A stretch of 64,000 bases of DNA, taken from positions 6,072-70,071 of the IMG/VR virus record IMGVR_UViG_3300048817_000078, one strand, 5' to 3'. This DNA comes from a virus. The notes beneath the pieces were generated by a model. It was not told the DNA's origin and ran no database searches. It worked only from the letters and a program-made list of their open reading frames with translations. Shown in pieces: positions 1 through 30,484 of the stretch. Numbering within the stretch: position 1 is the first letter of the stretch; every line of letters begins with the position of its first letter. The position numbers and the translations under genes are program-made.

Positions 1-729
1 TATCCATCGACTAATGGTTGGGGATACTCAACCGCTTCCACCGCTACCACGCAGACGGTCAACTTCCCATGTCAGGGCAACGCACCGATCTTATTGGTGG
101 GAAACATCGATTCAACAACAGTCACAGGGGTGACCGACAACAACAGCAACACTTGGGCAGGACTCACCAGGGTAGACAGTTCGGGAGACGGGTTCTCAAT
201 CCAGTATTACAACACCACCAACTATCCGGCCACTTGCAATGGGACAGAAAAAGTGACCGTGACCTATGGCGCCAACCCATCCGATCTAGATCCCTTGTGG
301 GTTTTCTTCGACGTGGCAGGCGCAGCATCTGGCTATGACTCTACGGCCACTTGCAGTTCCGGGTCTACGCCGTGTGCGACAAATACTTCATGTGCGTCCA
401 GCTCGACGGCAACAGGAGCACACATCACTCCCAGCGGATTTCCGGCCCTGGTGCTGAGTTACTTTAACCAGGACTTCGATACGATCAGTGGCATCAACGT
501 GGGGCAGTTCTTAACTGCTGAGGAAATATGCCCGAATGGGACCAACACCGGCTGTGGAGCTGCTGGTACGGGTACTTTCTATAACTACCAGGGATCTGGT
601 CTGGAGCAAGATGCGGGCATCATGGCCGATAGACTGGCAAGTGGCTCAGCAGCACTCACCTGGTCGGCCCAAAATACACAGAGTCAAAACATCGGCGCGT
701 GCTTTAGTAGCACCTTGGCCGTGAAGTAA
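1..729 (+). CDS. 5'-truncated Thr/Ser/Cys-rich beta-structure protein in the tail module
   Basis: Frame 1 is open from base 1 (YPSTNGWGYSTAST...) to TAA 727-729. Composition resembles the other adhesin-like tail-region proteins. Confidence 0.7.
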   Translation, partial: YPSTNGWGYSTASTATTQTVNFPCQGNAPILLVGNIDSTTVTGVTDNNSNTWAGLTRVDSSGDGFSIQYYNTTNYPATCNGTEKVTVTYGANPSDLDPLWVFFDVAGAASGYDSTATCSSGSTPCATNTSCASSSTATGAHITPSGFPALVLSYFNQDFDTISGINVGQFLTAEEICPNGTNTGCGAAGTGTFYNYQGSGLEQDAGIMADRLASGSAALTWSAQNTQSQNIGACFSSTLAVK

Positions 730-731
730 GG

Positions 732-866
732 GTGATTCTCTTAATGACTTCGGCGGTGCTCTACACGAGCGGCACATCGGCCCAGACCTTTACGTGGACC
801 ATTCAAAACACGAATAGCCAGGGAATCGACTACTACTTCTTCCAGGCAATTTCGGTGAAACCGTGA
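732..866 (+). pseudogene. 44-aa mini-ORF, paralogous to the C-terminus of the upstream protein (gene-replacement remnant)
   Basis: Encodes TWTIQNTNSQGI...ISVKP versus TWSAQNTQSQNI...LAVK upstream. Its TGA overlaps the next GTG start (GTGA). Confidence 0.45.
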
Positions 867-1795
867 GACAGTGCATAAGCGGTGCAGGCGTTGACACAAC
901 CACATCCGTCGTCACGTATCTTGCGGGCACCGTCAACCCTCTCATTCGGCACCTGTACCTGATCGGCGACCAGGATAACCCGCAGTCCATCTTCATGACC
1001 GACCACGAGGCACCGGTCATCTATCCGCCCTGGGGAACGTTCTATCCAGCCGTGGTTTCCAAGGGGTCGATCACATGCAAGGTTGGACTCGACGTTCAGA
1101 ACACCACAGTAAGCTGGTCACCCTCAAACCAAGACTTTACTTCGAGCGCGGCGACCGCAACGCCGCTGCAGCTTGCCCGCCAGCACTTCTATGACAACTG
1201 GCCGGTAAGGATCTGGAAATGCTTCATGCCGACGCCGGGCGATGCGAGCACGCTCGGCGCCTGCGAATGGTTCGGCGGCCGGATCGCAAACACGACGCTG
1301 GGCCGAAACCAGATTCAATTTCAGATCAACTCGTTCTTGGATGTGGTGACGCAGAAGGTTCCCGCGAACGTCATCGAGAGCACGTCGACCTTGGCCGGCT
1401 ACACGGCGGCGACCATTCCTGCGGGCGACCCTTCAATCCCCATCTTCAACGTATTCGTGGGGACAACGACAAACGCCATCATTGCGGACTGCATCTCGCC
1501 GACGCCGGGGAAGATTTACGCATTCAACCTGTTCGTGGCCGGATACCTGGTCTTCGTCAGCACTAACCCGGGCTCGACGCTGGGCGGTTTCTGGAGCGCG
1601 ATCTCGACCAACAACGAGTTTGTTGACGGCAACGGCAACACGCACAGCGTCTTCGATATCTATTCGTCGATGCCGTGGGCTCCGACGCCGGGTGTCGACC
1701 AGTTTTATGTGAGCACCGCAGCGCCGATCAATCAGGGCGACTCGCCGAACTTCGCCGGCTTTCCGTTCGTGCCCAGCCCGCAGAGCGCCGTTTAG
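863..1795 (+). CDS. Tail hub/baseplate protein, DUF2163 (lambda gpL/GTA-like)
   Basis: 310 aa; position upstream of NlpC/P60 and the tail tip; LDV...VSW...FGGRI...QFQINS pattern. Confidence 0.6.
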   Translation: MRQCISGAGVDTTTSVVTYLAGTVNPLIRHLYLIGDQDNPQSIFMTDHEAPVIYPPWGTFYPAVVSKGSITCKVGLDVQNTTVSWSPSNQDFTSSAATATPLQLARQHFYDNWPVRIWKCFMPTPGDASTLGACEWFGGRIANTTLGRNQIQFQINSFLDVVTQKVPANVIESTSTLAGYTAATIPAGDPSIPIFNVFVGTTTNAIIADCISPTPGKIYAFNLFVAGYLVFVSTNPGSTLGGFWSAISTNNEFVDGNGNTHSVFDIYSSMPWAPTPGVDQFYVSTAAPINQGDSPNFAGFPFVPSPQSAV

Positions 1796-1824
1796 GTCTT
1801 TGCAATCATCTCCAAGGACATTTC

Positions 1825-4800
1825 ATGAAAAGACTCACACTGCTCCTGGGTGCGCTGCTGGCCCTCTGCGCGCCGATGGTACGCGCTCAAACCATTAATG
1901 CGGCGAGCTGCTCGGCTGCCGACGTGCAGACAGCCTTTAACTCAGTTGTCACCTCGACGACGCAGGTAAATATCCCGGCGGGGAGCTGCAACTGGACCAC
2001 TCAGGTCACACTCAATGTGCCTTCAGGAAATACCAACCTCTCCATCATTGGGGCCACCACGATAAGCGGGTCCTGCGCTCCCGGGGGAACCTGCACGGCA
2101 ACGGACAGCACAACGATTACCGACAACGATGGAGCAGACCAGAATTGCCTGATCTGTCTTGGTCCGGGCGTAGCATCATCCTTTTTCAGGCTTTCTGGGT
2201 TGACGGTAAACATTGGGTCAGGCCATGTGAAATACAACGGCATGGTCGCCGTAAGCGGATATTCGCAAAGTACTCGTCTTGATCATCTTCACCTGAATGC
2301 CGGTCCGAATACCCCGATGAGAATTGGCTCCGGCGGTTGGATGTATGGGGTCATGGACCACAGCATCATTGAAGACAGTGGAGCAGTCGACGTCTGGGAT
2401 GACAACTGGGGCAATCCCGGGGGTACGACGAATACCAATTATTTCGGCGATGATTCCTTTGCCACGGCGACGAACTTCGGTAGCGGAAACGCCTTCTTCT
2501 TTGAGAACAACGTCTTCAACAGCGGTTCGATTCCCGGGCAATCGGCCTCTTACATGAATGACTGCTATTCCGGCGGCCGACTCGTCATCCGCTATAACAC
2601 CATGAACAACGTGGGCATGGACGAGCACCCCACGGGGGGTGCCGGAGCCGACATCCGCGGCTGCCGGAGCATGGAGGTTTACGGAAACCAGTTCAACGGT
2701 GCTATTTCGCCGACGACCGAGACGTATGACTTCTTTTACATGCAGTCGGCGACGGCCCTGGTCTGGAACAATACCGCATCCGGCTACGAGCACTTTCTAG
2801 ATCTACACACCACGCGCAGTACCGATACCACCTATGCCCAGTCTCCTACCCCTGGAGGGTGGGGATATTGCGGAAGCACGTCGGGGCTCTCGGGGGATGA
2901 ATCCGCGTGGGATCAAACACCCACTTCAACCTATGGCTACAAGTGCCTGGATGAACCGGGAACCGGGCAGTCTGATCTGTTGAATGGAACGGCGCCAAGC
3001 AAAGTCGATACTGCGACAGGTACGTTAACCTGGCCAAATCAGGCGCTCGAACCACTCTATGAATGGCTGAACAGCTATACCCCCTCATCTGGCTTTCCCA
3101 GCTCGACCTATTACACCGGGTACGCTCCCGGCCTGGCTGCGAACACTGATTATTATGCGTACACCGGGAGTTTTACCGGCAGCAGCGGAACGGGCAGCGG
3201 ATTGCTCGCTTCGCGCCCCGCAAGCTGCACGACCGGCGTGGCCTACTGGGCGACCGACCAAAGCACGCTCTACAAGTGCGTGGGGACGAACAGCTGGGCA
3301 AGTTATTACACCCCTTACGTTTATCCGCATCCGCTCGACACTGGCGGGGGCAGTATCACGCTCGCCTCGATAGCGGTAACAGGAGCGAACACGACGGCCG
3401 TAGGAGGAACGGTCGATTTGACGGCAACCTGCACCTATACGGGTTCCGGGGCGCCGTCCCCGACCAATTGCACCGGACCGAGTACCGATTCTCAGGGAAA
3501 CGCAGCAACGTGGACAAGCGGCACAACCTTACATGCCACGGTGGGGTCGACGACAGGCATAGTCACGGGCGTGGCCGCCGGCACGTCCAACATCACGGCC
3601 ACTGCGGCCGGTGTCAATAGCCCGGGCTTTACTGTCACCGTTTCGTCGACCACCACGTATTACATGTCGCCCTCGGGAAGCGATTCGAATTCCGGCACAA
3701 GTTCGGGTTCGCCCTGGGCTACCCCTAACCACTCCATAGCTTGCGGCACCACGATTTCAGCGGCGGCGGGCGCTTACGGGACAGCCCTTGGCTTCGGCAA
3801 TTGGGGCACGGTAACGGGCTGCGGCTCGGGTTCATCGGAAAACATCGCGGCTGTGGTTTGCGCGACTCCATTCGCCTGCACGGTGAGCCTCACCAGCGGC
3901 TCGCCGGGCGTCGGGATAACGGCTTCCAACTGGGGCGTCTTTGGTTTCGTCGCCACGGCGACCGGCGGCACGGCATCGTGCTTCGAGGCCTACCCGCTGG
4001 GCGGCTCGACCATCCACCACATCGTTTTCGGGAACGATATCGCCAACGGCTGCAACAGTGCCGGCTTCTCGTCTCCTCCAAACGGATCTGCCGGCGTCGA
4101 TTATTTCAACGTCGTCGGATCGATCTCATACAACGGATCGCAGGAATCGTCCGAGTGCGGGAGCGGCATCTCCATCTGGGAACCGGTGCAAAGCGATACC
4201 TTGGCTGGCACCCATATTTACATTTCGCAGACGTTCGACTGGCATAACGTGAACCCGAACCCCTGCGCGGGCACGCCGCCCACCGACGGGGAAGGGATAA
4301 TCTTCGATACTTGGGATGCTAATTCGTACGCCCAGCAAGGCGTGATGGAAAACAACATCTCGCTCTACAACGGCAATACGGGACTTCGCGTTGACTCGAC
4401 CACCCTGGCCCACACCTTCATTCTGAACAACACGGCCTATGCGAACGCGCAGGATTCCGCAATGGTCTCCTCGGAGTTCGGCGAGATCTTTCTCCAGGAG
4501 GACAATAACGCAACCGCTTCCAAGAACATAGTGCAGCCGACGGTCAACACGGTTGGCGGCTACCCGGTTTACACCTATGGCCTCAGCTTCTACAGCGCCG
4601 GGTCACCGGGCACAAACACGGTATCGAATAACCAGGGCTACAGTTCGTTCGGGAACGACACGAATTGCCAGGGAACCTGCACCGGATTCACCTTCGGACC
4701 CGGGAACACGACCACGAACCCGTCATTTACCAGCGCCCCGGGAAGCGTCCCCAGCGCCCCGAGCTGCAGCTCCTACGCGACCGTGCCCGCTTGCATGGCG

Positions 4801-7800
4801 GCGCTCATCACGGACCTCACGCCGACAAACGGCAACGCCTCATGGGGCTACCAGCCGGTCTCAGGCAGCGTCGTATCCGACCCGTACTTTCCGGCGTGGC
4901 TATGCAATGTGACCCAGCTATCGGGCTTGGTCACCAGGGGATGCGCGGCAGGTCCCACCCTCAGTTCGATCGCCGTGACCACGACCGGTGGAATAACTAC
5001 CTTCGGAATCGGCGTAACGAATCAGCTCACCGCGACCTGCACGTACACCGGAAGCGGTGCGCCCTCGCCGACCAATTGCACCACGACCGATTCGCAGGGC
5101 AACCGCGCGTCCTTCACCAGCGGGACGCCGGCAACCGGAACAGTGACCTCGCCCGGCGGTCTCTTCACCGCGGTAGCGGCCGGCACGACGAACGTCACTG
5201 CCAATGTCGGCGCGGTCACCAGTTCGCCCGTCACCTTGACGGTGAGCCCATCGGTTCTCGCGGCCACGCCCAGCTTCTCACCGACCTCAGCCACGTTTAG
5301 CGGAAGCCTCTCCGTCACCATCTCGGATACGACTCCCAGCTCGACCATCTACTACACCAACGATGGCAGTACGCCTACGACGGGATCGACCGTCTATTCG
5401 AGCCCGTTGACGCTGACGGCTACCACCACGCTCAAGGCGATTGCCACGGCTTCGGGATTCGTGCAGAGCAACATCGGAACGTCTGTCTACACACTCTCAT
5501 CGGGCGGCGATACGCGCACGGTGACAGAGCCCGTCTTCCCGCCGGTATGCCAGGTGCTCAACGCGGTGCTCTCGATCGGCACAAGCACCTCGATCAATAA
5601 CGACCCCTACAACGTCACGCCTTACCTGCCGGCGAATAACTTCAGCTATGAGCCGTCGTCGGAGACGGCATTTGATACGACCCGCGTCCAGAACGCGCTC
5701 AATAGCTGCGCGAGCGGCCAAGCGGTAGAACTCGCACCCAGCACGGACGGCACCAAGTACGGCTTTCTTCTGCAACGCATCACCGTCCCCACGGGTGTGA
5801 GTCTCACGATCGACCCCGGCGTCGGCGTTTATGCCAGCAGGAACCCGGCCGACTACGGCGGGACCAATTGCGGCGTGGTAACCTCCGCGGGCGGCGGATG
5901 CAATCACTGGATCACGGGGCCGAACACAACCGGCTCCGGGATTTACGGCTATGGCCGCTTGGACGGCCGCGGATGGGACCGGCTCTTGGTCGGCGGCGTC
6001 CAGCAAAGCTATTCGTGGTACTCGAACACGATCCAGGCCTACTGCAATAAGCACAGCGGCGCAATCAACGGCTCGCCGCCTTGCACGCCGAACTCGCAGG
6101 GTGGAAATCAGTACGGCCCGAACATCTTAGCCATGGTCAACGCCAGCAGCTTCACGCTTTACAAGACGACCCTTCATGCCGGGCCGGAATTTCAATTTGA
6201 GTGGGAGGGCACTAACGGCGGTACGCAGGCAAACGGGCTGACCGTTTGGGGCGCGAAAATCATCACCCCATTTGAAACCAGCAATACCGACGGTATTGAC
6301 CCAACAAACAATTTTCAGAATGTCACGGTTGAGGACAGCTTCATATCCAATGGCGACAACCAGATGGCCATGAAGAGCACCAATGGCGGCGGCGCTGGAA
6401 AGAACGTCTCCATCCTGAATAACCATACCTATGCCGGAATCGAGATCGGCATCGGCAGCGATACGGGTGGAGGATTCAGCAACGTCGTCGTAAGCGGCCT
6501 CACGCAGAATGGCAACCTGAACAACGTCCAGAGCGCCGGCATTGGCATCAACAGCTCAACCTCCAATGGAGGCACCGTCTCAAACATCACGTTCACCGAT
6601 ATTTGCCAGGTGAACGAGCATGACACATGGAGGTTCTACACGAATTATGGCTGCGACACCGGCTCGCAGACCCCGCTCTATACCGGCATCAAGCTGTCGA
6701 ACATCACCGTCCTTCCCTCGACCGCGCCCTACACCACTGGCAACTCTGGATACTTCACCTTCCAGGGCCTCAACAGCAGCAACCTGATGGGTCTGTCGCT
6801 CAATAACATCAACATCAATGGAACCAACCAGGGCGTGACACAGCAGTGCAGCGTGACGAAGGACCAGTACGCGCAAATCGCCTTGGGCCCGAACTTTGTC
6901 GATTCCTCGCTATTGAGTCAGTTCGCAGCCGGGACGAGCGTCAACACGACCGGAAGCGGCAGCGGTGGCACGCCATACAACTGCAGCTATCCCTCAAGCT
7001 TCCAGCCCATCGTAGGCGAACTGTTGATGATGACGCCCACGGCAACCAACCAGCAATGCCGGCCGAACTGCACCTTCTCGGGTTCCACGGCAACGTACAC
7101 CTTGCAGGTAGTGATCCAGCCGGCGACTGAGATCAACTCCAAGGAGTCTTATGCGCTGACCAGCGGCCCGATCACGTTCTCTGACAATGGGACCCCGGTC
7201 GGCACGGCCACCATCGGGACCTACGGAGATAACGGAACGCTGGCGCAACTCACGCTGACCAACGTCGCCGCGGGCACCCACCACTATACGGCGACCTATC
7301 CCAGCGATGGCCATTATGCGTCGTGGACTCCATACACCTTTGGCAGTCTTAACGTCGATATCAACGGCTGCACTCCAGGCTGCACGGCGCCGCCGACATT
7401 CTCGCCGACCACCGAGGGCTTCACCGGCACGGTAACTGTCACAATCTCCGACTCCAGCCCATCGCCGACGATCTACTACACGACGGATGGAAGCGTACCA
7501 ACCACGGGCTCGTCGGTTTATTCAACTCCGCTGACCTTCAGCGCGACCACAACGTTGCGCGCCATTGCTACTTCGTCGGGACTCACCACGAGCACGTCGA
7601 GCCAAGCAGTCTATACGCTCGGATCGAACCCTGCAGCAACGCCAACCTTCTCGCCCAACTCCGAGACCTTCACCGGAAGCATCTCGGTAGTCATTAGCGA
7701 TTCGACCAGCAGTCCGACCGTCTATTACACGCTCGATGGTTCGACCCCGACGACCGCCTCCACGGTTTATTCTGGACCCCTTGCCATCTCCGCAAGCACA

Positions 7801-8382
7801 ACCGTCAAGGCAATTGCCACGGCGAGCGGCTTTACGCAAAGCGCGGTCGGAACCGCAGTCTATTCGCTGAGCGGTCCAACCGCAGCGACGCCTCTCTTTA
7901 CGCCGGGCTCGCAGGCGTTCACCGGGACGCTCTCGGTTGTGATCTCCGATACCACGCCGAGCTCGACGATCTACTACACAACCAATGGGACCACGCCCAA
8001 CACTGGCTCGACAGTCTATTCAGGCCCCATCAGCGTCTCGGCAAACACGATCATTAACGCCATTGCGGTCGCGACCGGGTACATCACGAGCGCCATGGGC
8101 ACGGCGACCTACACGCTGAGCAGCCAGACGCCGACCATCATTCCGGGCCCGCAGAAGTTCTCGACGACGCTGACGGTCAGCATCGTTAGTCCGGCGGGCG
8201 GCGTCATTCACTACACGGTGGACGGGAGCACGCCGACGAGTGCGTCGCCGCTCTATGCAGGGGCCTTTACGATCAGCGCAAGCACGACGGTGAAGGCGAT
8301 CACGATAGTCTCGGGCGTTACGAGCCTTCCGGCGACGGTGATCTATACGCAGGGGCAGTGTTTTGGGTGCTGGTGGAAATGA
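1825..8382 (+). CDS. 2185-aa Sec-exported multidomain protein: beta-helix, Ig (Big_2), beta-helix, Ig, chitobiase C-terminal repeat, GH28-like domain, Big_3, four more chitobiase repeats
   Basis: AAGGA RBS at 1814-1818, ATG 1825, signal peptide MKRLTLLLGALLALCAPMVRA|Q. GH28 hallmarks DTRTVTEP and NTDGIDP; YYTxDGSTP repeats. Confidence 0.85.
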   Translation: MKRLTLLLGALLALCAPMVRAQTINAASCSAADVQTAFNSVVTSTTQVNIPAGSCNWTTQVTLNVPSGNTNLSIIGATTISGSCAPGGTCTATDSTTITDNDGADQNCLICLGPGVASSFFRLSGLTVNIGSGHVKYNGMVAVSGYSQSTRLDHLHLNAGPNTPMRIGSGGWMYGVMDHSIIEDSGAVDVWDDNWGNPGGTTNTNYFGDDSFATATNFGSGNAFFFENNVFNSGSIPGQSASYMNDCYSGGRLVIRYNTMNNVGMDEHPTGGAGADIRGCRSMEVYGNQFNGAISPTTETYDFFYMQSATALVWNNTASGYEHFLDLHTTRSTDTTYAQSPTPGGWGYCGSTSGLSGDESAWDQTPTSTYGYKCLDEPGTGQSDLLNGTAPSKVDTATGTLTWPNQALEPLYEWLNSYTPSSGFPSSTYYTGYAPGLAANTDYYAYTGSFTGSSGTGSGLLASRPASCTTGVAYWATDQSTLYKCVGTNSWASYYTPYVYPHPLDTGGGSITLASIAVTGANTTAVGGTVDLTATCTYTGSGAPSPTNCTGPSTDSQGNAATWTSGTTLHATVGSTTGIVTGVAAGTSNITATAAGVNSPGFTVTVSSTTTYYMSPSGSDSNSGTSSGSPWATPNHSIACGTTISAAAGAYGTALGFGNWGTVTGCGSGSSENIAAVVCATPFACTVSLTSGSPGVGITASNWGVFGFVATATGGTASCFEAYPLGGSTIHHIVFGNDIANGCNSAGFSSPPNGSAGVDYFNVVGSISYNGSQESSECGSGISIWEPVQSDTLAGTHIYISQTFDWHNVNPNPCAGTPPTDGEGIIFDTWDANSYAQQGVMENNISLYNGNTGLRVDSTTLAHTFILNNTAYANAQDSAMVSSEFGEIFLQEDNNATASKNIVQPTVNTVGGYPVYTYGLSFYSAGSPGTNTVSNNQGYSSFGNDTNCQGTCTGFTFGPGNTTTNPSFTSAPGSVPSAPSCSSYATVPACMAALITDLTPTNGNASWGYQPVSGSVVSDPYFPAWLCNVTQLSGLVTRGCAAGPTLSSIAVTTTGGITTFGIGVTNQLTATCTYTGSGAPSPTNCTTTDSQGNRASFTSGTPATGTVTSPGGLFTAVAAGTTNVTANVGAVTSSPVTLTVSPSVLAATPSFSPTSATFSGSLSVTISDTTPSSTIYYTNDGSTPTTGSTVYSSPLTLTATTTLKAIATASGFVQSNIGTSVYTLSSGGDTRTVTEPVFPPVCQVLNAVLSIGTSTSINNDPYNVTPYLPANNFSYEPSSETAFDTTRVQNALNSCASGQAVELAPSTDGTKYGFLLQRITVPTGVSLTIDPGVGVYASRNPADYGGTNCGVVTSAGGGCNHWITGPNTTGSGIYGYGRLDGRGWDRLLVGGVQQSYSWYSNTIQAYCNKHSGAINGSPPCTPNSQGGNQYGPNILAMVNASSFTLYKTTLHAGPEFQFEWEGTNGGTQANGLTVWGAKIITPFETSNTDGIDPTNNFQNVTVEDSFISNGDNQMAMKSTNGGGAGKNVSILNNHTYAGIEIGIGSDTGGGFSNVVVSGLTQNGNLNNVQSAGIGINSSTSNGGTVSNITFTDICQVNEHDTWRFYTNYGCDTGSQTPLYTGIKLSNITVLPSTAPYTTGNSGYFTFQGLNSSNLMGLSLNNININGTNQGVTQQCSVTKDQYAQIALGPNFVDSSLLSQFAAGTSVNTTGSGSGGTPYNCSYPSSFQPIVGELLMMTPTATNQQCRPNCTFSGSTATYTLQVVIQPATEINSKESYALTSGPITFSDNGTPVGTATIGTYGDNGTLAQLTLTNVAAGTHHYTATYPSDGHYASWTPYTFGSLNVDINGCTPGCTAPPTFSPTTEGFTGTVTVTISDSSPSPTIYYTTDGSVPTTGSSVYSTPLTFSATTTLRAIATSSGLTTSTSSQAVYTLGSNPAATPTFSPNSETFTGSISVVISDSTSSPTVYYTLDGSTPTTASTVYSGPLAISASTTVKAIATASGFTQSAVGTAVYSLSGPTAATPLFTPGSQAFTGTLSVVISDTTPSSTIYYTTNGTTPNTGSTVYSGPISVSANTIINAIAVATGYITSAMGTATYTLSSQTPTIIPGPQKFSTTLTVSIVSPAGGVIHYTVDGSTPTSASPLYAGAFTISASTTVKAITIVSGVTSLPATVIYTQGQCFGCWWK
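3358..5244 (+). repeat. Two Ig-like (Big_2) domain copies at 3358-3642 and 4957-5244
   Basis: Both begin TLxSIAVT and share the identical peptide TATCTYTGSGAPSPTNCT. Confidence 0.8.
5260..8352 (+). repeat. Five chitobiase/beta-hexosaminidase C-terminal (Fn3-associated) repeats: 5260-5496, then four in tandem at 7384-8352
   Basis: Repeated consensus ATPxFSP...SVxISD...IYYTxDGSTPTxxSxVYSxP...TTxKAIA. Confidence 0.85.
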
Positions 8383-8576
8383 TGAACCTAAAGAGAAGAA
8401 TCCGGCAGTTCCTTACTCAGCCTCGCGAAATCAGACTGCAGCAATTCAAAGAGGCGGTCGCGCACATGGAAGAAACGATGACGCCAGAGGAGATGCGCCT
8501 CTTCGTAAAGTTCCCGTGCGGACCGCGGATGCTTGCGGAACAAAGAAAGAGACGCCTCAGTGGAAACGGCGGCTAG
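8379..8576 (+). CDS. Small hypothetical protein (65 aa)
   Basis: ATGA coupling to the giant gene; overlaps the NlpC/P60 start. Confidence 0.5.
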   Translation: MMNLKRRIRQFLTQPREIRLQQFKEAVAHMEETMTPEEMRLFVKFPCGPRMLAEQRKRRLSGNGG

Positions 8577-9090
8577 CGCGATATCCCGCGACGACGCGGT
8601 GAAGATTGCGCGGAGTTGGATTGGGACGCCGTACGTTTTAGGCGGACGGGTCAAGGGTGCAGGGACAGATTGCGCCACATGCCTGGCCGAGTACCTTCTT
8701 GAGTGCGGTTTCGCAGAGCGCGAGGATCTCGGCGTCTACTCGCACGATTGGTTCTGCCACGCGCCGGACGAGCGTTACATGCTGCGGCTGATTCGGCACG
8801 CACGCAAGACGTTGGAAGGCCGGTGCCGCGGCACGGTGGAAGCCTCGCCCGGCGACCTGATTCTCTTCAAGGTGGCGCGCTCCCGGCTCTTCAACCATGG
8901 CGGCATTGTGACCCGCTGGCCGTTCATGGTCCACGCTGCGAACCCGGTTGTGAAGGAACAGAACTGCGTGACTCACTGGATGACCGGGTATACCGAGTTC
9001 GCGGTGTTTGATCCTTGGCCTACTGAACAATCGCTAGCGCCTTCCGGTGGCTCAGCCTGTTTGGGTCCACACCTGTTAGGTACGCATTGA
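8560..9090 (+). CDS. NlpC/P60 tail-associated peptidase
   Basis: WIGTPYVLGG...GTDC...HGGIV...MVHA, with Cys/His catalytic residues; canonical position before the tail tip gene. Confidence 0.9.
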   Translation: METAASAISRDDAVKIARSWIGTPYVLGGRVKGAGTDCATCLAEYLLECGFAEREDLGVYSHDWFCHAPDERYMLRLIRHARKTLEGRCRGTVEASPGDLILFKVARSRLFNHGGIVTRWPFMVHAANPVVKEQNCVTHWMTGYTEFAVFDPWPTEQSLAPSGGSACLGPHLLGTH

Positions 9091-9247
9091 TGAATGACAG
9101 CGGCAACACCTTAGAACTCCATCCATAGGCGGCCATCAAAGGCTTCTTGTTTTGGTTATCCAGGCGGGTAGCCATTCGCTTTGTTCTGCACACCGAGACT
9201 TTAAACAGGTCACCGCGAATGTACGTAAAGACGAGCCACTTTTCCAT
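9020..9247 (-). CDS. Possible reverse-strand moron (75 aa)
   Basis: Fills the gap between NlpC/P60 and the tail tip gene; more AT-rich; no clear RBS. Confidence 0.3.
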   Translation of the reverse strand: MEKWLVFTYIRGDLFKVSVCRTKRMATRLDNQNKKPLMAAYGWSSKVLPLSFINAYLTGVDPNRLSHRKALAIVQ

Positions 9248-9277
9248 GAGCGCAATCTTACTTGGAGCGGGCCCTGA

Positions 9278-12200
9278 ATGCTAAGTGGAAAAGCAGCAGC
9301 CGCGACCAAGCCGACAGCGCTCGGGTCACTGCTCCAGGCTGCAACCTATGGGCAAACCATCCCGGTCATCTACGGGATGACGCAAAGCCCCTTGCTCGCC
9401 ATCTGGACCGCGAACATCCGCCAGGGCGGCAGCACAAAGAAGCTCAAGCAAGACATCAAGGGCGTGACCACATACGTCGAGAACATCGACTTCTTGCTCG
9501 GGCACAACCCCATCATGGGTGTCCAGCAGATGTGGAATAACGGGAGTCCCATCCCGCTCAACTTCATCACCCTCGCGGTGGGCGGGTCCGGGGCGGCCTC
9601 CTACACCATCGATGACCCGTATTTCTACTCGATCATCGCGGTCACGGTGGACCAGACATACACCGACGTGGTCTTCAACGATTACGGCGGGAACGGGCCG
9701 CAGAGCCTTTCGGGTACCATGCCCACGCCGTGTTGGAACACGCTGTTTTCCGGGCCGGCCTGGATTTCGCAGCAGCGCAACTTCCCATATACCTACCGCT
9801 GGGAGCCTTCGTACGGGTCGACGTTCTATCTCGACGGGCCGTTTTATGCCGCTCCAGGCGGCGTGGTCACGGTCTACTATACGCAGCTCAGGGCCGCCAC
9901 CAGCTACCTGCCGCCGATCCAAAAGGAGATGCTTGTCTTCGAGCCGCAGCTCGGCTCCGGGGCCGAGTACGAGGACGCCAACCTTACGGCCCAGCAGATC
10001 GTCTACCCGATGTTCGCGGGGCTTGGATCCTCAAGCATCGACCTCGGCGCGGGCGGCGTAATCCCGCAACTGCAGGTCGAGGTCCAGGGCAAGTGGGGCC
10101 TCTATCCAACCGGCGATGCCGACTTCGCCGACATGATCGAGGACGTCTTCCGCTCAGGCGTTGCCCAGGCAGCAATCGGCGACACCACCGGAACCATGCC
10201 GGGGTTTACCCAGGTTGAGCACGGGCTTTCGGGCTACGACTTTCCCGGCTGCGTGCAGAATCAATTTGCGGGCGGCGCGGATTTTCCTTCAAATCCCATC
10301 CCGTACAACCAGCCGAATACGAAGGGGAATTTCCTGGTCGTCATCGCCACTTCCGGGGCGACGGCCACGCTGGGCATATCGGACACGGCAGGGAACACAT
10401 GGACACCGCTGCTCGCCTCGGGCCTGTATATGCAGGTCTGGTGGGCACAAGCAAAAGCGTCAGGCCCAAACACCGTCGCAATCAGCGGGCCGCAGGGAAA
10501 CGACAGCGGCACGCAATTGCTCGAGATTGGAGGCGTCGACACCTTTGACAGTTCGACCATCGGAACGAGCCCGAGCGTTTCCCAGGTAACAACCAATCAG
10601 CAGGGCTTCCCGGCCTACATTCTTACCTTCTCGCTGTGGACGCCCGGCTCGCCCGGCTTTAGCACGACGCCGAATATACCGCTCTGGACGCCACTCAACG
10701 CGCCGAGCAACGTTTACGACCTGAACGCTCCCTATGAGTTAATCTTTTCGCGCACCGTGGAAACGCCGGGGACATACAAGTTCACGATGCCGCAACCCAG
10801 CTCGAATCCCAGCTACGTTTGCTCGCTGGCGTTCAAGTGCGCCATCGCGCCGCCAAGCTATCCGGCGCCGGTCGGCGACTACGTCGACAATTACTCGCTC
10901 GACACGGTACGCCTGCAATGCCGCGCCAATGGCCTCTGGGGCTCGCTCACGATGGATTCCCAGCAGGCGGCGAGCGATTGGCTGACTACGCTCTACCAGG
11001 CGGCCGACGCGGCGCCGCTGTTCATGGGGTTCAAGCTTTACAGCATCCCCTACTCGGAAGTCTCGAAGATTGGGAACGGCGCCATCTTCAACGCCTACAC
11101 GGCGTGCGGGCCGATCGCAAATCTGAGCACGGAGAACGGGGACTTCGTCGCATCGGGAAATACCCCACCGCTGACCATCAAGACGGCCGCACGCGTTGAC
11201 CAGCCAAACGTGCTGCAGATGCAGTGCATCAACCGGAGCTCGAACTACAACCCGAGCGTGGTCGAGCAACCGGACGCGGTGGGGATCTCGCTCTTCGGCA
11301 TACGCAAGGCCGACCCGGTGCAGAATTACGCCATCCAGGATGTGTCAATCGCGCGCCAGATTCTCGGCATCATGGTGCGCAAGCTCCAATACGGGGGAGA
11401 CGTTGCCAGCTTTACGGTCCCGGCCAAATGGTGCCTGCTCTCGCCGATGGATTTGATTACGGTGACGGACCCGCTCATGGGCGTCAATCAGTTACCCGTG
11501 CGCATCACCTCGATGGCCGAGCAGACCGACGGCTCGATCCAGTGCCAGGCCGAGCCCTTCGTTTACGGCATGTACGCGCCCACGCCGTTTTCAGCGAGCC
11601 AGTCCGGGGGCAGTTCGCCAAGCACGGGTGCAACCGTCACTCAGCCGATAAATCCGCCCATCATCTTCGAGCCGGTTCCGGGGCTGATCGGCTCGGCAAA
11701 TCAGGGCCAGGTGTGGCTTGTCATCTCGGACCCGGACCCGAACTTCGCCGGCGCGCAGGTCTACATCTCAACCGATGGCGGAGCGAGCTATATTTCCGCA
11801 GGTTCGCCCACCATAGGAAACGGAGTTCAGGGCGTCACCGTGGACGATTGGCCGGGTGCATCGAGCCCTGATACGACGAATAACCTCAGCGTCAACCTTA
11901 CCGAGAGCGCGGAGACACTTCAGAGCTACCCGGTCGCAACCGAGGATGGGTTCGTTTATCCCTGCTATGTAGAAAACGGGCCTCCGACGCCAGTCCTGCG
12001 TGGCTCTTCGTTTCTAACTCAGGGCCCAATTAGCAACACGATCCTCATCCCTCTCCCGGCCGGCTCAGAGGTGGGGGACCTTGCAATCCTTTTCGCTTCT
12101 GCCGGCGACAACATAGCCCCGGTCCCAGAAACCGGATGGGCGAACGCATACAGCGGGGGCGGCGGCGGCCCCTGGTCACAAATCTCCGTATATAAGCTGC

Positions 12201-12985
12201 TGATTAGCTTCGATATCACACTCGGATATGTGGAGGTCCAGTGCCCCGCAGGAGCCTTCGATATGGCTGGCGGGCTCGTCGTATTCGTTGGGCCTACTGG
12301 CGGCATACGCGAAACCGAGGGCATCGGAGGAGATGGCGGCAACATAACCCTGACCAACACGACTTCCGGGGCGGTTCTCGATACTGACGTGGCTGTTTAC
12401 TGGGCCTCTCTTCGCCAAGATGGCGGCCCCATCGATGCGCCCGTCATTACACCATCGACCGGCACAGCTAATACCCTTGGCGGTTCCGGAACGACGAATA
12501 TCTATGCCCTACTCGCAGATCAGGTTATGCCGGGTGGCGCGGTCACGGTCGAAAATAACTTTGTCGCGGCCGGCAACGGAGGCTTTGCGGTCCAAGTGAT
12601 TGTCGAGAGCGCCGCAACGCCAGAAGTGCCGTATGAGTTGATGACCTACGGCGCGGCGACGCTGACTGCGGTTTACAACTACACCCTTATGGCCACCGGG
12701 GTCGGAAACCATCTGGACCGTGCAGTTCTCGGGGCGCCGGCTACGGGCGTCGGCGTCGACCATCCAAACGGCTCTGCATTCGCCCTTCTGCCGCCGAGCG
12801 GACAGGGCATTTGCAAAGTACCGTTGCTGCCGGCCTGGGTCGGCGAAACGGTGCATTTCAAGATGCTCCCCTTCAATTCCTTCGGCGTCGTGACGGGAAC
12901 GCTCGCCGACGCAACCGCATACCCATACACGGTCCTCGGCACGAGCGGGACGGGTGCCCAAACTATCTCGGTTAATGGTTCTTAG
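9278..12985 (+). CDS. Tail tip / host-specificity protein (Phage-tail_3-like), 1235 aa
   Basis: YGQTIPVIYG N-terminal motif, LSPMDLITV/RITSM segment, GGAG RBS; follows NlpC/P60. Confidence 0.85.
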   Translation: MLSGKAAAATKPTALGSLLQAATYGQTIPVIYGMTQSPLLAIWTANIRQGGSTKKLKQDIKGVTTYVENIDFLLGHNPIMGVQQMWNNGSPIPLNFITLAVGGSGAASYTIDDPYFYSIIAVTVDQTYTDVVFNDYGGNGPQSLSGTMPTPCWNTLFSGPAWISQQRNFPYTYRWEPSYGSTFYLDGPFYAAPGGVVTVYYTQLRAATSYLPPIQKEMLVFEPQLGSGAEYEDANLTAQQIVYPMFAGLGSSSIDLGAGGVIPQLQVEVQGKWGLYPTGDADFADMIEDVFRSGVAQAAIGDTTGTMPGFTQVEHGLSGYDFPGCVQNQFAGGADFPSNPIPYNQPNTKGNFLVVIATSGATATLGISDTAGNTWTPLLASGLYMQVWWAQAKASGPNTVAISGPQGNDSGTQLLEIGGVDTFDSSTIGTSPSVSQVTTNQQGFPAYILTFSLWTPGSPGFSTTPNIPLWTPLNAPSNVYDLNAPYELIFSRTVETPGTYKFTMPQPSSNPSYVCSLAFKCAIAPPSYPAPVGDYVDNYSLDTVRLQCRANGLWGSLTMDSQQAASDWLTTLYQAADAAPLFMGFKLYSIPYSEVSKIGNGAIFNAYTACGPIANLSTENGDFVASGNTPPLTIKTAARVDQPNVLQMQCINRSSNYNPSVVEQPDAVGISLFGIRKADPVQNYAIQDVSIARQILGIMVRKLQYGGDVASFTVPAKWCLLSPMDLITVTDPLMGVNQLPVRITSMAEQTDGSIQCQAEPFVYGMYAPTPFSASQSGGSSPSTGATVTQPINPPIIFEPVPGLIGSANQGQVWLVISDPDPNFAGAQVYISTDGGASYISAGSPTIGNGVQGVTVDDWPGASSPDTTNNLSVNLTESAETLQSYPVATEDGFVYPCYVENGPPTPVLRGSSFLTQGPISNTILIPLPAGSEVGDLAILFASAGDNIAPVPETGWANAYSGGGGGPWSQISVYKLLISFDITLGYVEVQCPAGAFDMAGGLVVFVGPTGGIRETEGIGGDGGNITLTNTTSGAVLDTDVAVYWASLRQDGGPIDAPVITPSTGTANTLGGSGTTNIYALLADQVMPGGAVTVENNFVAAGNGGFAVQVIVESAATPEVPYELMTYGAATLTAVYNYTLMATGVGNHLDRAVLGAPATGVGVDHPNGSAFALLPPSGQGICKVPLLPAWVGETVHFKMLPFNSFGVVTGTLADATAYPYTVLGTSGTGAQTISVNGS

Positions 12986-13258
12986 ATGGGCGCATTCCAG
13001 GCAAATTTTTCCAACGTAACCCCGGCCGCGCCAGCGGATTACCCGAGTGTCTATTGGCAAAAGGGCCTAAGCCCTACCGGTGTAAACGCGGCGGGCCTGC
13101 CGATTTACGACGTCTCGGCCTACGTGCCGGTCGTTCTCGGCCCGGGCCCCGGCGGCACGCATGACGAGCCGCTGACCGATGGCAATGGAAACATAATCTT
13201 CGCTGCGACGCTCACGCTCGGAGGCGACGTAATCGTGGTTCTGGGAGTGCCAAATTGA
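12986..13258 (+). CDS. Hypothetical tail-module protein (90 aa)
   Basis: Abuts the tail tip stop; TTGA coupling to the next gene. Confidence 0.6.
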   Translation: MGAFQANFSNVTPAAPADYPSVYWQKGLSPTGVNAAGLPIYDVSAYVPVVLGPGPGGTHDEPLTDGNGNIIFAATLTLGGDVIVVLGVPN

Positions 13259-14454
13259 CGACCATTGCTCAAGTAATCCTTGAAGGCATCTACGCCGACA
13301 TCCCCGCCTATGGCATCCCCGGGCGCCTCTACTTCGCCACGGACACGAACATCACTTATCGCGACTCGGGTTCGGCCTGGGTCGAAGTGTTGTCCGGCGG
13401 CACCGGCACCGGAACGGTAACCAGCGTTGCGCTCACCGTGCCGGCGATTCTGTCTGTGAGCGGCTCGCCGATCACCGGTTCAGGCACGCTCGCGGTAACC
13501 CTTGCCACGGAGACGGCGAACGAAGTCTTTGCCGGCCCGGCGTCAGGATCCGCAGCAGATCCAACCTTCCGCGCATTGGCGGCGGCCGATTTGCCCTTGG
13601 CAACCACCGGCGCATTCGGAGCGGTCAAGCCCGACGGCTCTACCATCACCATTTCTGCCGGTGTCATCAGTTCGACTGCGCTCGCCAATCCGATGACGAC
13701 CGAAGGGGACATCATCTACGGCGGCGCGTCGGGTGTGCCCACCCGGTTGGCTGCTGGAACCAGCGGCGACGTTCTCCAGACGAATGGCTCCAGCTCGGCG
13801 CCCACATGGGTGACGCCCAGCGGCGGAGGCGGAGGCGGCCTATTCAGTGCCATCATGAGCGCGGTACCGACGCAGGCCGGCATCTCGCTCACAACCGCCT
13901 ACAATCAATCGGGTACCTTCACCGCAACGAACAATCCAACCGGCATCACGCTCGTCGACACAGGAACCCTCGGCGTTCATGTAGAGGGCATCCTGGGAAC
14001 GTATCCGGGGTCGGCCTTTACCCTTAACGCGCTGTTCTCGATGCCGGCCGGAATCATCAATGGGACCACGCAGCCGGTTTCGACCACGGGATTCGCCATC
14101 GTTATCGCCAATACGACAACCGGGGAGGCGCTCTATCTGGGTTTGCTCGATTACGGTGGGCCGCCATGGAACATCTACGTTGTCGAACTCACCAACCCGA
14201 CCACGCTCGGGACGCAGTTAGTACTGGCCGCGGATGGCATCCTTCAGCAAAGCCCGTTCGTATGGCTCCAGTTGCAGGACGATGGAACCAGCATCTACTT
14301 TCGCTTCTCCTACGACGGAAGCCTTTGGACGCAGGTCTACACAGTTACTAAATCTTCTAGCTATCTTGGCTCTGGTGGTTTCAACTATTTGGGTTATGCA
14401 ATTCTGCCGGACGGAGGACCGGTTGGTAACACGCTCATGAGTTGGGCGACCTAA
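13255..14454 (+). CDS. Tail fibre / receptor-binding protein
   Basis: GTVTSVALTVP...PTFRAL...DLP fibre motif, Gly linker, C-terminal lectin-like beta domain (WLQLQDDGTSIYFRFSYDG). Confidence 0.7.
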   Translation: MTTIAQVILEGIYADIPAYGIPGRLYFATDTNITYRDSGSAWVEVLSGGTGTGTVTSVALTVPAILSVSGSPITGSGTLAVTLATETANEVFAGPASGSAADPTFRALAAADLPLATTGAFGAVKPDGSTITISAGVISSTALANPMTTEGDIIYGGASGVPTRLAAGTSGDVLQTNGSSSAPTWVTPSGGGGGGLFSAIMSAVPTQAGISLTTAYNQSGTFTATNNPTGITLVDTGTLGVHVEGILGTYPGSAFTLNALFSMPAGIINGTTQPVSTTGFAIVIANTTTGEALYLGLLDYGGPPWNIYVVELTNPTTLGTQLVLAADGILQQSPFVWLQLQDDGTSIYFRFSYDGSLWTQVYTVTKSSSYLGSGGFNYLGYAILPDGGPVGNTLMSWAT

Positions 14455-16562: not shown

Positions 16563-16961
16563 ATGAAACCACTCTATATCTTCGTGCTCGCGCTGGCCGT
16601 CGCTACGACCGCAACCGCCCCGGCTCAATTCCCCGCCTTCACCTGGCAAGCGAACCCCGGATGGTCCGCGTGGCCCCCGTGCACAACGAAGGTTACCACC
16701 ATGTGCCGAACCGGCTTCGCAATCTCGGACGTCACCAAGCCATCGGCGCCCTTCAATGTCTCGAACACCATCTCGGCGACCGCCTTGTCCTACACCATGT
16801 GGAAGATGCCGACGGTCGGAGTCCACACCTTCAGCTTGGTCGCGAACGCCAAGAACCAGGCGGGAGCCGCGACGGCATCAACGCCGGTAACCCTAACGAC
16901 CACCATAAAGGCTGCTGCCGCCCCCGGGGCGCCCCTGGCTTTCGCAATCAAAACCCCGTAA
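16563..16961 (+). CDS. Exported Fn3/Ig-like protein, paralog 1
   Basis: Signal peptide; FTWQAN...WPPCTTKVTTMCRTGF. Confidence 0.7.
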   Translation: MKPLYIFVLALAVATTATAPAQFPAFTWQANPGWSAWPPCTTKVTTMCRTGFAISDVTKPSAPFNVSNTISATALSYTMWKMPTVGVHTFSLVANAKNQAGAATASTPVTLTTTIKAAAAPGAPLAFAIKTP

Positions 16962-16973
16962 CGAGGTGACTTC

Positions 16974-17363
16974 TTGAAACGACTTCTCTGGCTGCTACTT
17001 CTCGCGGCTTCGCCCGCGCTCGCGCAATCGAACAGCGTTACGTTTACCTGGCAGGCCAACTCCGCATGGGCGACGTCCTGGCCGGCCTGCTCGACAACCG
17101 TGACCACCGATTGCCTTAGTGGCTTCACCTTGAGCGACATCACGAACGCCACCAAGCCGGTGGTTATCAGCTCAACGATTGCGCCCACGGCGTTGACCTA
17201 TACCCAGACGCCTGCGGGAGCGGCCGGATCGCATACTTACTCGCTCGTGGTCAACGGCAAGGACCAGAGCGGCAATCCTGCGGCCAGTACGCCTGTCACG
17301 TCCACGGCGACCATACCGAGCAACACGCCGCCTCCGCCGGTCAACTTCAGCGTCACGCCGTAA
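16974..17363 (+). CDS. Exported Fn3/Ig-like protein, paralog 2
   Basis: GAGGT RBS, TTG start, signal peptide ...SPALA|Q; FTWQAN...WPACSTTVTTDCLSGF. Confidence 0.75.
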   Translation: MKRLLWLLLLAASPALAQSNSVTFTWQANSAWATSWPACSTTVTTDCLSGFTLSDITNATKPVVISSTIAPTALTYTQTPAGAAGSHTYSLVVNGKDQSGNPAASTPVTSTATIPSNTPPPPVNFSVTP

Positions 17364-29404: not shown

Positions 29405-30484
29405 ATGCGCGATATTGTCAGCCATACTCCCCCACAGAAACAAGAGACTCACAGCCAGCTAGATCCGGCGCGATGTGAGCGGGAACGCCTTGCTGCCATG
29501 GATGAAGTTGTCTTGGATTCTCTGCCCTTCAGCCGAGCTGCGCACTTGTGGCTCGACCAGCATAAACGCTACATCAAACCCAACACAGCCAACGGATACC
29601 AGGCCGCAGTAAAGCTCCTAACGCGGTTCCTGGGCGAGACCATCGTCAAGGAGATCCACATCGGGCACATACGCGCCTACCAAGCCGAGCGGAGCAAGAA
29701 GGCCGGTCCGTACCTGCTCAACAGCGAGCTGAGCGTCTTGCAACAGATCCTCAAGGAAGCCCGGTGCTGGGCGCCACTGAAGGACCTCTACCGCCCCATG
29801 CGGGTCCCCAAGCGCAAGGCGGGCCATTCTATAAGCGCAGACGAAGAGCGGATTCTTCGCGAGGTCGCCTTCAGCCGCCCAAAATGGCGCCTGGCCGCCC
29901 ATTGCATGATGGTCATGCTCTCGACCACCATGGGATTCGGCGAGTTGCGGCACGTTCGGCGCCGGGATGTGGACCTGCGGCGGGGCTGCGTTTTGGTCCG
30001 GGAGGGCGCTAAGAACGATTTCCGGGACCGAACCATTCCCTTGAATGCGGCCGCGTTTGACTCGATGAGCTGGCTGCTAGATCGCTGGGACGACCTCGGC
30101 GGAACGCGGGAGGACCAGTTCATCCTGCCGCATCGCCCGCGGAAGCCAAATGGCCCGTGGATCTTCGACGAGCCCATGACGGCGATCCGGAGCGCCTTCA
30201 GTAGCATCAAGAAGCAGGCCGGGCTGCCCTACTTTCGGGTGTATGATTGCCGGGTTCAGGCCATCACCAAGTTACTAAGCAACCCGATGGTAAGTCCCCA
30301 GGTGTCCAAGGAGATTGCCGGCCACATCAGCCAGGCGATGCAGAATCGCTATAGTATCCAGCAGTTTGACACCAAGAAAGCTGCCCTGGACGCCCTTGAT
30401 ATACCCCGCGATCCGCCCAAAAAGCCTGTTGAAAAAATAAGTGATTTAGGACTTGCGTTTGTACGGATGCGAGGCGTAAGGTGA
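29405..30484 (+). CDS. int: Tyrosine recombinase/integrase (atypical active site)
   Basis: GELRHV...DVDL; GAKN...RTIPLN; YDCR; AGH; NRY. The first catalytic Arg position reads Gly. Confidence 0.85.
   Translation: MRDIVSHTPPQKQETHSQLDPARCERERLAAMDEVVLDSLPFSRAAHLWLDQHKRYIKPNTANGYQAAVKLLTRFLGETIVKEIHIGHIRAYQAERSKKAGPYLLNSELSVLQQILKEARCWAPLKDLYRPMRVPKRKAGHSISADEERILREVAFSRPKWRLAAHCMMVMLSTTMGFGELRHVRRRDVDLRRGCVLVREGAKNDFRDRTIPLNAAAFDSMSWLLDRWDDLGGTREDQFILPHRPRKPNGPWIFDEPMTAIRSAFSSIKKQAGLPYFRVYDCRVQAITKLLSNPMVSPQVSKEIAGHISQAMQNRYSIQQFDTKKAALDALDIPRDPPKKPVEKISDLGLAFVRMRGVR

Follow-up and report, generated by a model that had tools for sequence, protein, structure and literature searches.

A giant, predicted Sec-exported protein with three beta-helix modules encoded within the tail-tip operon of an uncultured soil phage

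The stretch of DNA analysed here (64,000 nucleotides, hereafter the window) is bases 6072-70071 of the 71,979-bp linear IMG/VR virus contig IMGVR_UViG_3300048817_000078, for which CheckV estimates a completeness of 82%. On its + strand, at 1825..8382, it carries a gene for a protein of 2185 amino acids, hereafter the giant, which interrupts the tail-tip operon of a phage and occupies 6558 nt (10.2%) of the window, in line with the share of about 10% quoted in the preliminary description. The giant is a head-to-tail fusion of three right-handed beta-helix modules joined by Ig-like and chitobiase-type spacers, and it begins with a predicted Sec-type signal peptide. Our favoured reading, to which we give a probability of about one half, is that it is expressed late, exported by Sec, and stabilised by disulfides, and that it depolymerises the host's own exopolysaccharide or capsule as a free enzyme and not as an assembled part of the tail. 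It thus combines two known kinds of element, the phage depolymerase and the exported gene in a tail module. Positions below are those of the window, unless they are given as genome positions, which are counted on the contig.

Insertion of the giant gene between tail genes

At its left end the contig carries a siphovirus tail-tip module of RcGTA/phiJL001 type, with the end of the tape-measure gene and a DUF2460 distal-tail gene directly upstream of the window; almost all long open reading frames (ORFs) of the contig lie on the + strand. The giant gene is located between the tail hub gene (863..1795, +, 310 aa; PF09931 Phage_phiJL001_Gp84_N, E 5.9e-6; phrog_778, tail) and the gene of the NlpC/P60 tail peptidase (8560..9090, +, 176 aa; PF00877, E 7.7e-4; phrog_329), which is followed by that of the J-like host-specificity or tail-tip protein (9278..12985, +, 1235 aa; PF13550 Phage-tail_3, E 5.9e-16). 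The claim that the hub and NlpC/P60 genes are normally neighbours was borne out by 20 related tail loci: J led to three of them in viral contigs and to six in species genomes, D1, the first beta-helix module of the giant, to one (L030), and the hub to ten. A single-sequence search with J had found no relatives in species genomes, and an alignment query was needed for these six. In all 20 loci the hub gene is followed by NlpC/P60 and then J, with gaps of 0-430 nt; identity to the window is 39-65% for the hub and 36-63% for NlpC/P60. Since the three genes are contiguous in every related locus, the giant gene is an insertion.

The ORF extends from the ATG at 1825 to the TGA at 8380-8382. The stop codon of the hub gene lies at 1793-1795, which leaves a gap of 29 nt, and in this gap the ribosome-binding site AAGGA (1814..1818, +), noted earlier and readily recognised in the sequence, stands 6 nt ahead of the ATG. 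Like morons of the lambda lom/bor type, the giant is an extra gene between genes that are adjacent in relatives (20 of 20 loci). The promoter and terminator of its own and the deviant composition that also characterise morons were not observed: apart from the 29-nt gap upstream there is an ATGA overlap with the following ORF downstream, and relative synonymous codon usage (RSCU) correlates with that of the core structural genes at r = 0.95. A scan for promoters and terminators detected none flanking the giant gene, with counts at or below those of shuffled sequences, although the consensus used may not fit Acidobacteriota. Downstream, a convincing terminator appears first at 15555, ahead of the endolysin gene.

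Predicted export signal and cysteine content

The giant starts with MKRLTLLLGALLALCAPMVRA, followed by QT after the predicted cut. This N-terminus (residues 1-21; 1825..1887, +) comprises the n-region MKR, a 14-residue hydrophobic core LTLLLGALLALCAP, and a cleavage site predicted between VRA and Q. It thus has all the features of a substrate of the Sec pathway and signal peptidase I, namely a charged n-region, a hydrophobic core of 7-15 residues, and small residues at positions -3 and -1, and the maximum of 10-residue hydropathy falls inside the first 20 residues, as in the other proteins flagged here. Signal peptides were called by inspection and a simple rule on hydropathy and charge, not by a trained predictor. 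For the giant, the signal peptide proposed in the preliminary description is corroborated by its alignment with the signal peptides of 76 stand-alone members of the D1 family. A lipoprotein reading based on Cys15 was rejected, as Leu at position -1 leaves no canonical lipobox and the cysteine is not conserved in the family.

The many cysteines reported earlier amount to 47, or 46 once the signal peptide is cleaved. The protein ends in QGQCFGCWWK (the last eight residues and the TGA stop at 8356..8382, +) with no second hydrophobic segment, so the description of a terminal CFGC lacking a membrane anchor holds; the end carries no known sorting tag. A C-terminal sorting motif shared with relatives could not be established, as these end in varied short tails resembling beta-strands.

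Tails are assembled in the reducing cytoplasm, and tail proteins are accordingly made without signal peptides. For this reason the giant, if exported as predicted, likely works outside the cell and not as an ordinary tail part.

Domain architecture

The mature protein consists of three right-handed beta-helix modules (D1, D2, and a GH28-like module), two Ig-like modules, one Big_3_5 module, and five chitobiase-type repeats. D1 (residues 22-504; 1888..3336, +) and D2 (residues 610-1043; 3652..4953, +) have no match in Pfam, but the two beta-helices proposed in the preliminary description were both recovered by structure prediction. The AlphaFold2 model of D1, built from an alignment of its family, is a right-handed beta-helix with a mean predicted local distance difference test (pLDDT) score of 85. 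In VIA-align it superimposes at Z 20-24 on an alginate lyase/epimerase, ORF18 of Geobacillus virus E2, RbmB, polygalacturonases, and tailspikes, and the family has invariant D, H, R, Y, and E columns. The D2 model is likewise a beta-helix (pLDDT 91), for which Foldseek ranks chondroitinase B (E 1.6e-4), BT_1002, and AlgE4 best, with Pel9A further down the list. As the three helical modules carry enzyme-type folds, the earlier designation of the giant as a glycan-binding protein understated it.

The third beta-helix (residues 1227-1705; 5503..6939, +) was correctly recognised as GH28-like: it matches Erwinia PehA (PDB 1BHE) with E 5e-37 and PF00295 with 64 bits against a cut-off of 22.9. The Pfam match was missed in a scan of the whole protein and surfaced only when residues 1240-1710 were scanned alone. 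Homology to PehA is clear over about 360 residues, and the motif NTD (6283-6291) and the first Asp of GDD are kept. The second Asp of GDD, one of the three catalytic aspartates of GH28, is replaced (GDN, 6352-6360), and the galacturonate-holding residues, the His of GHG and the Arg and Lys of RIK, are lost in GIE and GIN. GDN is shared without change by two relatives (46-49% identity), P0036 and a 671-aa protein of an Acidobacteria prophage (L103), so the module represents a constrained subfamily rather than decay. From its sequence, this subfamily is distinct from PehA and probably acts on another substrate, perhaps with altered catalysis.

The spacers fared unevenly in domain searches. The five chitobiase repeats were reproduced as five stretches of PF13290 CHB_HEX_C_1 (246.7 bits overall, E 1.1e-74), also seen as PF13287 Fn3_assoc (221 bits): repeat 1 covers residues 1147-1226 (5263..5502, +; E 1.2e-17 on the piece) and repeats 2-5 residues 1855-2177 (7387..8355, +). 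The Big_3 domain was retrieved as Big_3_5 (PF16640, E 1e-8) at residues ~1758-1848 (7096..7368, +), with 36.1 bits just over the cut-off of 35.5. Of the two Big_2 domains proposed, the repeated Ig-like segments are real, but neither reaches a Pfam cut-off (Big_2 E 0.022 and 1.2). The first (residues 510-607; 3352..3645, +), the one with the Big_2 match of E 0.022, was recognised by inspection as a repeat of the second (residues 1044-1141; 4954..5247, +), which gives a match to PF22359 Big-like of E 2.2e-4 and 21.8 bits against a cut-off of 27.

A scan of the giant against PHROGs identified no family at E<=1e-3, and a tblastn search against 50,697 phage records returned only a match of 75 residues in the chitobiase repeats. 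Homologue searches with the whole protein were swamped by these repeats, and P0036 alone aligned beyond them.

Origin of the modules in families of secreted proteins

Judged from their sequences, D1 and D2 represent two large unnamed families of secreted beta-helix proteins. The D1 family counts 3033 cluster representatives at E<=1e-3, mostly stand-alone proteins of ~530 aa. Its alignment begins inside the members' own signal peptide, and its consensus shares the mature start AQTI.AASC. For D2 we found 439 relatives, up to 71% identical and stand-alone at ~470 aa, with signal peptides in all 75 of the sample checked.

The cellular context of these families was looked up in four cases. The nearest cellular D1 relatives (P0122 and P0123, 50% identity) are encoded among genes for Wzy, a Wzx-type flippase, glycosyltransferases, and sugar-nucleotide enzymes, and a cellular D2 relative (P0373, 44%) lies in a locus of the same Wzy, flippase, and glycosyltransferase kind; the families of their neighbours are Wzy_C, Polysacc_synt, GT2/GT4, and WecG. 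All three cellular contexts are thus biosynthesis loci of the exopolysaccharide or O-antigen type in soil bacteria, and the fourth look-up, of a D2 relative (P0275), was phage-like. Similarly, P0003, the top-scoring giant chitobiase-repeat protein in the homologue search, lies in a Wzz/Poly_export locus. The GH28-like and Big_3 modules occur together in the Acidobacteria prophage L103, where a separate gene close to the integrase encodes them as an exported protein of 671 aa; this product opens with the same GDTRTVTEP, and the gene has an upstream spacer of its own. Since each module occurs elsewhere as a separate secreted protein, the giant appears to be a fusion of three independently existing secreted enzymes.

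Exported genes around the hub

The giant is not the only gene of this module with a predicted signal peptide. In relatives the distal-tail gene abuts the hub gene, whereas here ~4.4 kb lie between them (genome 2438-6800, locus L016). This stretch contains five consecutive genes that relatives lack, first a signal-less one of 129 codons (p129) and then the four exported genes SP289, SP263, SP233, and SP528, which lie mostly outside the window. SP528 (genome 5214-6800; 528 aa, 14 Cys, signal peptide MKKLLWALMAACCMLPAIALG followed by Q) enters it with its 3' part at 1..729 (+). By their predicted N-termini, five exported genes, including the giant, thus flank the hub gene. The mature forms of SP289, SP263, SP233, and SP528 have 6, 4, 4, and 12 cysteines, respectively, so that the count is even in all five exported proteins of the tail region. 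No cysteine occurs in the distal-tail protein, p129, or the two fibre ORFs downstream of J, p90 and a 399-aa ORF. The mature N-terminal domain of SP289 is 50% identical to p129, starting from p129 residue 1, and SP289 and SP263 share a C-terminal domain. Searches of Pfam and PHROGs gave nothing above threshold for SP289, SP263, SP233, SP528, and the 65-aa ORF that follows the giant, and p129 likewise belongs to no family of either collection.

Relatives of SP528 (41-62% identity) are confined to a few phage-like contigs, on four of which (L029, L113, L114, L115) the gene lies immediately upstream of a D1-family gene, abutting or overlapping it. This conserved pair is interrupted by the hub gene in the present phage. 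A complex prediction for D1 and SP528 scored under the mark, which counts neither for nor against their pairing. SP263 (genome 3729-4520) and SP528 have a lower GC content at third codon positions (GC3 0.62 and 0.58) and codon usage poorly correlated with that of the core genes (r 0.31 and 0.13); the phage may have acquired them more recently.

Recurrence in other phages

When IMG/VR was scanned with the D1 alignment, 161 stretches were confirmed. Among 43 full-length D1 genes examined on viral contigs, 39 have an N-terminus resembling a signal peptide by the hydropathy and charge rule; most of the 43 products are rich in cysteine, and many are 1000-2400 aa long. Signal-peptide-like N-termini are also seen in 72 of the 289 + strand ORFs within 7 kb, typically in the genes immediately upstream and in a gene of 130-160 aa downstream. 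The signal-less neighbours match head, portal, terminase, sheath, and endolysin families of PHROGs, which identifies these contigs as phage genomes. The signal peptide is thus retained in 76 D1 and 75 D2 stand-alone proteins and in 39 of 43 viral D1 relatives, and this argues that export is selected in phages and is not a relic.

The settings differ between phages. In L030, a p90-like ORF comes after J, and between it and the endolysin lie the genes of two exported proteins, first a D1 protein of 1368 aa and then one of 790 aa that has an SGNH-like motif. P0036, which is 46% identical to the giant from the GH28-like module onward, belongs to an unrelated SU10-like podovirus, in whose structural module it adjoins a further exported protein, of 975 aa. 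In several phages the exported neighbours contain shaft segments 40-46% identical to the signal-less fibre of the present phage. Such exported genes are apparently a recurrent and undescribed pattern in uncultured soil phages, and in the literature searched we found no account of tail operons with genes for giant depolymerases or fibres exported by Sec.

On the phage-like contigs L010 (7063-15181), L106 (3558-13037), and L113 (3554-19052), between three and six exported Cys-rich genes follow one another beside head, adaptor, or lysozyme genes; these runs include proteins of 1259-2143 aa, a GDSL-type esterase, and D1 or D2 modules. In L029 (170-6412), a 2080-aa protein with 40 Cys, a fibre-like N-terminus, and no signal peptide is encoded directly upstream of an exported SP530/D1 pair. 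This protein shows that cysteine richness does not always go with export in these phages.

Host, lifestyle and expression

More distant relatives of the J protein are found in metagenome-assembled genomes of Candidatus Angelobacter, Acidiferrales, an "Acidobacteria bacterium" (on a 638-kb contig), and Bryobacterales. The host of the phage is therefore very probably an acidobacterium. PF00589, the tyrosine recombinase family, is matched twice, by a 359-aa ORF at 29405-30484 and partially by an open frame of 147 aa at ~41557-41778, which suggests that the phage is temperate. Sixteen DNA runs of peat or permafrost metagenomes contain this stretch.

Assemblies of four peat or permafrost metatranscriptomes contain short contigs 95-100% identical to the giant gene, and the same four RNA runs also hold contigs from the hub, J, and fibre genes. 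This fits late co-expression.

Free enzyme or part of the virion

The preliminary description left open whether the giant is loaded onto virions at lysis or secreted as a protein co-expressed with the late genes. The alternative was reasonably posed, and the evidence now leans towards secretion. According to our favoured reading of a free depolymerase, the giant would be co-transcribed with the tail genes late in infection, threaded through SecYEG, and folded in the periplasm, where its disulfides would form. It would then cut the host's own exopolysaccharide or capsule in the periplasm and, after lysis, in the surrounding matrix. Progeny would thereby be released from the slime and gain access to neighbouring cells, and receptors on debris would be destroyed. 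The logic would be that of the small exported receptor-blocking genes beside the tail genes of coliphages (Llp, Cor), here in an enzymatic form. The four other exported proteins around the hub, SP528 above all, probably work together with the giant.

Several observations favour a free enzyme. The signal peptide is followed at once by D1, and from mature residue 1 onward the protein is colinear with stand-alone cellular enzymes, which leaves no room for a particle-binding domain; in addition, all three modules occur as separate secreted proteins. Relatives build the same tip of hub, NlpC/P60, and J without the giant, and the phage itself keeps a normal signal-less, Cys-free fibre (p90 and the 399-aa ORF) as well as J. 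Finally, related cassettes are also present in cargo positions near integrases.

Other points weigh against this reading or limit the support for it. The enzymatic activity, export, and localisation of the giant are predictions from sequence and structure models, the signal peptide among them being a rule-based call. The activity of the GH28-like module is uncertain in view of its altered signature residues. The RNA contigs indicate presence, not level, strand, or a single transcript, and may include DNA carry-over. No route is evident by which a protein of 230 kDa would cross the outer membrane before lysis. The gene lies inside and not beside the tail-tip operon, and is tightly spaced there. 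In both L030 and L103, the place behind J and a p90-like ORF, where fibres are usual, is taken by exported proteins. The exported proteins are mosaic with signal-less tail proteins, through the shaft segments of the fibre (40-46%) and through p129 (50%). Arrays of Ig-like domains are moreover typical of virion decoration.

The last four of these points support the principal alternative, in which the giant and the exported fibre-like proteins are oxidised in the periplasm and dock on finished tails at lysis, once holin and endolysin merge the compartments, giving the virion hardened depolymerase side-arms. The embedding of the gene between hub and NlpC/P60 with no transcription signals and the recurrence of the pattern beside genes for head, tail, and lysis in many phages, the unrelated SU10-like podovirus among them, also speak for it. 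In its general form, soil phages of Acidobacteriota and other phyla would send a set of fibre-like and depolymerase proteins through Sec, let their disulfides form in the periplasm, and join them to the tail tip only at lysis; we hold this possible but rather doubtful. That the giant, SP528, and the three smaller exported proteins flanking the hub make up such a set in the present phage is a suggestion which, taken together with loading at lysis, is equally tentative. On the other side, no docking domain was found and the protein, once cleaved, starts in the same way as free cellular enzymes; the giant itself contains none of the fibre-shaft segments; related cassettes past the lysis genes near an integrase (L114, L103) are in a cargo position; relatives need no such part; and no precedent in tailed phages was found in the literature searched.

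A second alternative, in our estimate unlikely, is that the giant is expressed from the prophage as a factor of lysogenic conversion or exclusion, trimming the surface polysaccharide of the lysogen and thereby blocking superinfection or altering biofilm behaviour. The tyrosine recombinase genes and the relatives integrated in Acidobacteriota chromosomes agree with this, as do the separate GH28-like gene near the L103 integrase with its own upstream spacer and the precedents of Lom, Cor, and Llp, exported genes beside tail genes. However, the 29-nt gap is too short for a promoter, neither side of the gene shows a site resembling a promoter or terminator, its codon usage is that of the late genes, and in four of four RNA libraries the tail genes are present together with it.

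It is still less probable that the giant is an auxiliary metabolic gene, a secreted hydrolase of pectin-type plant polymers that feeds the infected host. The GH28 match and the report of phage and prophage carbohydrate-active enzymes (CAZymes) as carbon-cycling genes (PMC13507307) point in this direction. Against it, RIK, which binds the galacturonate carboxylate, the His of GHG, and one catalytic Asp are all replaced, D1 and D2 relatives lie in bacterial exopolysaccharide loci and not in polysaccharide-utilisation loci, and the gene is located in a tail operon and not among early or metabolic genes.

An artefact in either form that the preliminary description named as a refutation, a wrong start codon or host DNA chimerically assembled into a phage contig, is a negligible and already refuted explanation: apart from the unusual content of the gene, only an in-frame GTG at 1675 speaks for it, which would give a signal-less ORF of 2235 aa but runs over the hub gene (ending at 1795), whereas the ATG at 1825 has a ribosome-binding site and is the correct start, the same 2185-aa product was picked by gene callers on five independent assemblies, the identical protein and its neighbours recur on at least nine independently assembled contigs (ENA, JGI, Logan) as well as in the 16 DNA runs, and both RSCU (r = 0.95) and GC3 (0.74) are like those of the core genes.

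Comparison with known systems

Free depolymerases of the kind we favour have cellular counterparts in WceF, RbmB, PslG, and AlgL, enzymes of polysaccharide-synthesis loci that trim the cell's own polymer. WceF of Pantoea stewartii is a Tat-exported, tailspike-like stewartan hydrolase (PMC7949094). WceF, RbmB of Vibrio cholerae (PDB 9ozd/9ozl), and VexL (PDB 6fi2) are, like the giant, predicted or known exported beta-helix proteins; all three are encoded in polysaccharide-synthesis loci and cut their own polymer, and the cellular D1 and D2 members likewise reside in biosynthesis loci and have export signals. Structural alignment of D1 gives Z 22.3 with RbmB, 18.5 with WceF, and 17.1 with VexL, but identity is only 10-14%, so that D1 is not a member of these families. 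WceF further differs in its Tat signal and in a retained tailspike-like head domain, whereas the giant is phage-encoded, has three modules fused, and is five times larger.

Virion tailspikes and depolymerases (P22, CBA120 TSP1-4, Klebsiella and Acinetobacter phages) share with the giant the beta-helix fold (Z 17-22), the location among tail genes, and a host surface glycan as likely target. In contrast to them, with their particle-binding N-terminal domain, cytoplasmic folding, paucity of cysteine, single beta-helix per chain, and lack of a signal peptide, the giant has a predicted signal peptide, 46 Cys, three beta-helices, no anchor domain, and no PHROG match.

The location recalls lambda Lom, T5 Llp, and Cor of phi80, T1, and N15, whose signal-peptide genes stand amid tail and receptor-binding genes and whose products act in the envelope of infected or lysogenic cells. 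These are outer-membrane proteins or lipoproteins of <25 kDa that block a protein receptor; the giant, in contrast, is by its sequence a soluble multi-enzyme of 230 kDa. Cor is mentioned in PMC4936722.

Two surveys have dealt with exported phage genes. Among 64,678 prophage CAZymes, 5% have signal peptides, tail-fibre-linked genes being excluded by design (PMC13507307), and phages of Porphyromonas gingivalis contain exported genes of unknown function that obey the "Q-rule" of Gln as first mature residue (PMC10367356). As in these reports, phage genes here are fitted to the host's Sec pathway, and Gln comes first in the giant and most other exported proteins. Both surveys differ in remaining at the catalogue level, with tail-module genes excluded or not examined, and they describe no giant multi-module proteins or exported clusters. 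Gln is first after the predicted cut in all seven exported proteins that we examined (window 1825, 16563, 16974; genome 2841, 3729, 4513, 5214); it is also the consensus at the first mature position of the D1 family, the D2 family having Thr. The pattern recalls the Q-rule of Bacteroidetes, with its pyroglutamate N-termini.

Other features of the tail-tip and lysis region

A 65-aa ORF of uncertain reality (8379..8576, +), whose ATG overlaps the stop codon of the giant gene (ATGA), has no signal peptide, belongs to no family, and is absent from relatives. The gap of 187 nt between NlpC/P60 and J (9091-9277) contains a weak terminator-like hairpin at 9153-9174; in most relatives these two genes overlap or abut. 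J is followed by p90, a 90-aa ORF (12986-13258), the 399-aa fibre ORF (13255-14454), and then the endolysin. The tail fibre is apparently split between the two ORFs, as p90 matches the N-terminus of the single 703-aa fibre of a relative (L013; 38% over 58 aa), and the 399-aa ORF, in its residues 59-108, matches residues 190-239 of the same fibre (60%). Just past the endolysin region, tandem paralogues with 50% identity (16563-16961 and 16974-17363) encode two small proteins predicted to be exported (132 and 129 aa, each with 2 Cys); they give a weak Ig-like (Big_1) hint and are not obviously spanins.

Implications

The five exported genes of the tail region encode at least 3,498 residues, or ~15% of the 72-kb contig, and thus take up a large share of the late coding capacity. 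The host-recognition and depolymerase proteins of tailed phages are regarded as cytoplasmic, signal-less parts of the virion, and when phage CAZymes turn up in soil viromes, they are usually taken for metabolic helpers. The genes described here would instead encode exported enzymes of the disulfide type, put together from those with which the host trims its own slime. If they are borne by the virion, they would reveal an unrecognised extracellular step in tail assembly and an extracytoplasmic maturation of tailed-phage virions. If, as we favour, they act free, they would be receptor-destroying or matrix-clearing enzymes with a logic comparable to that of viral neuraminidase. They may then be a source of robust biofilm-degrading enzymes and would change the reading of viral glycoside hydrolases in studies of soil carbon.

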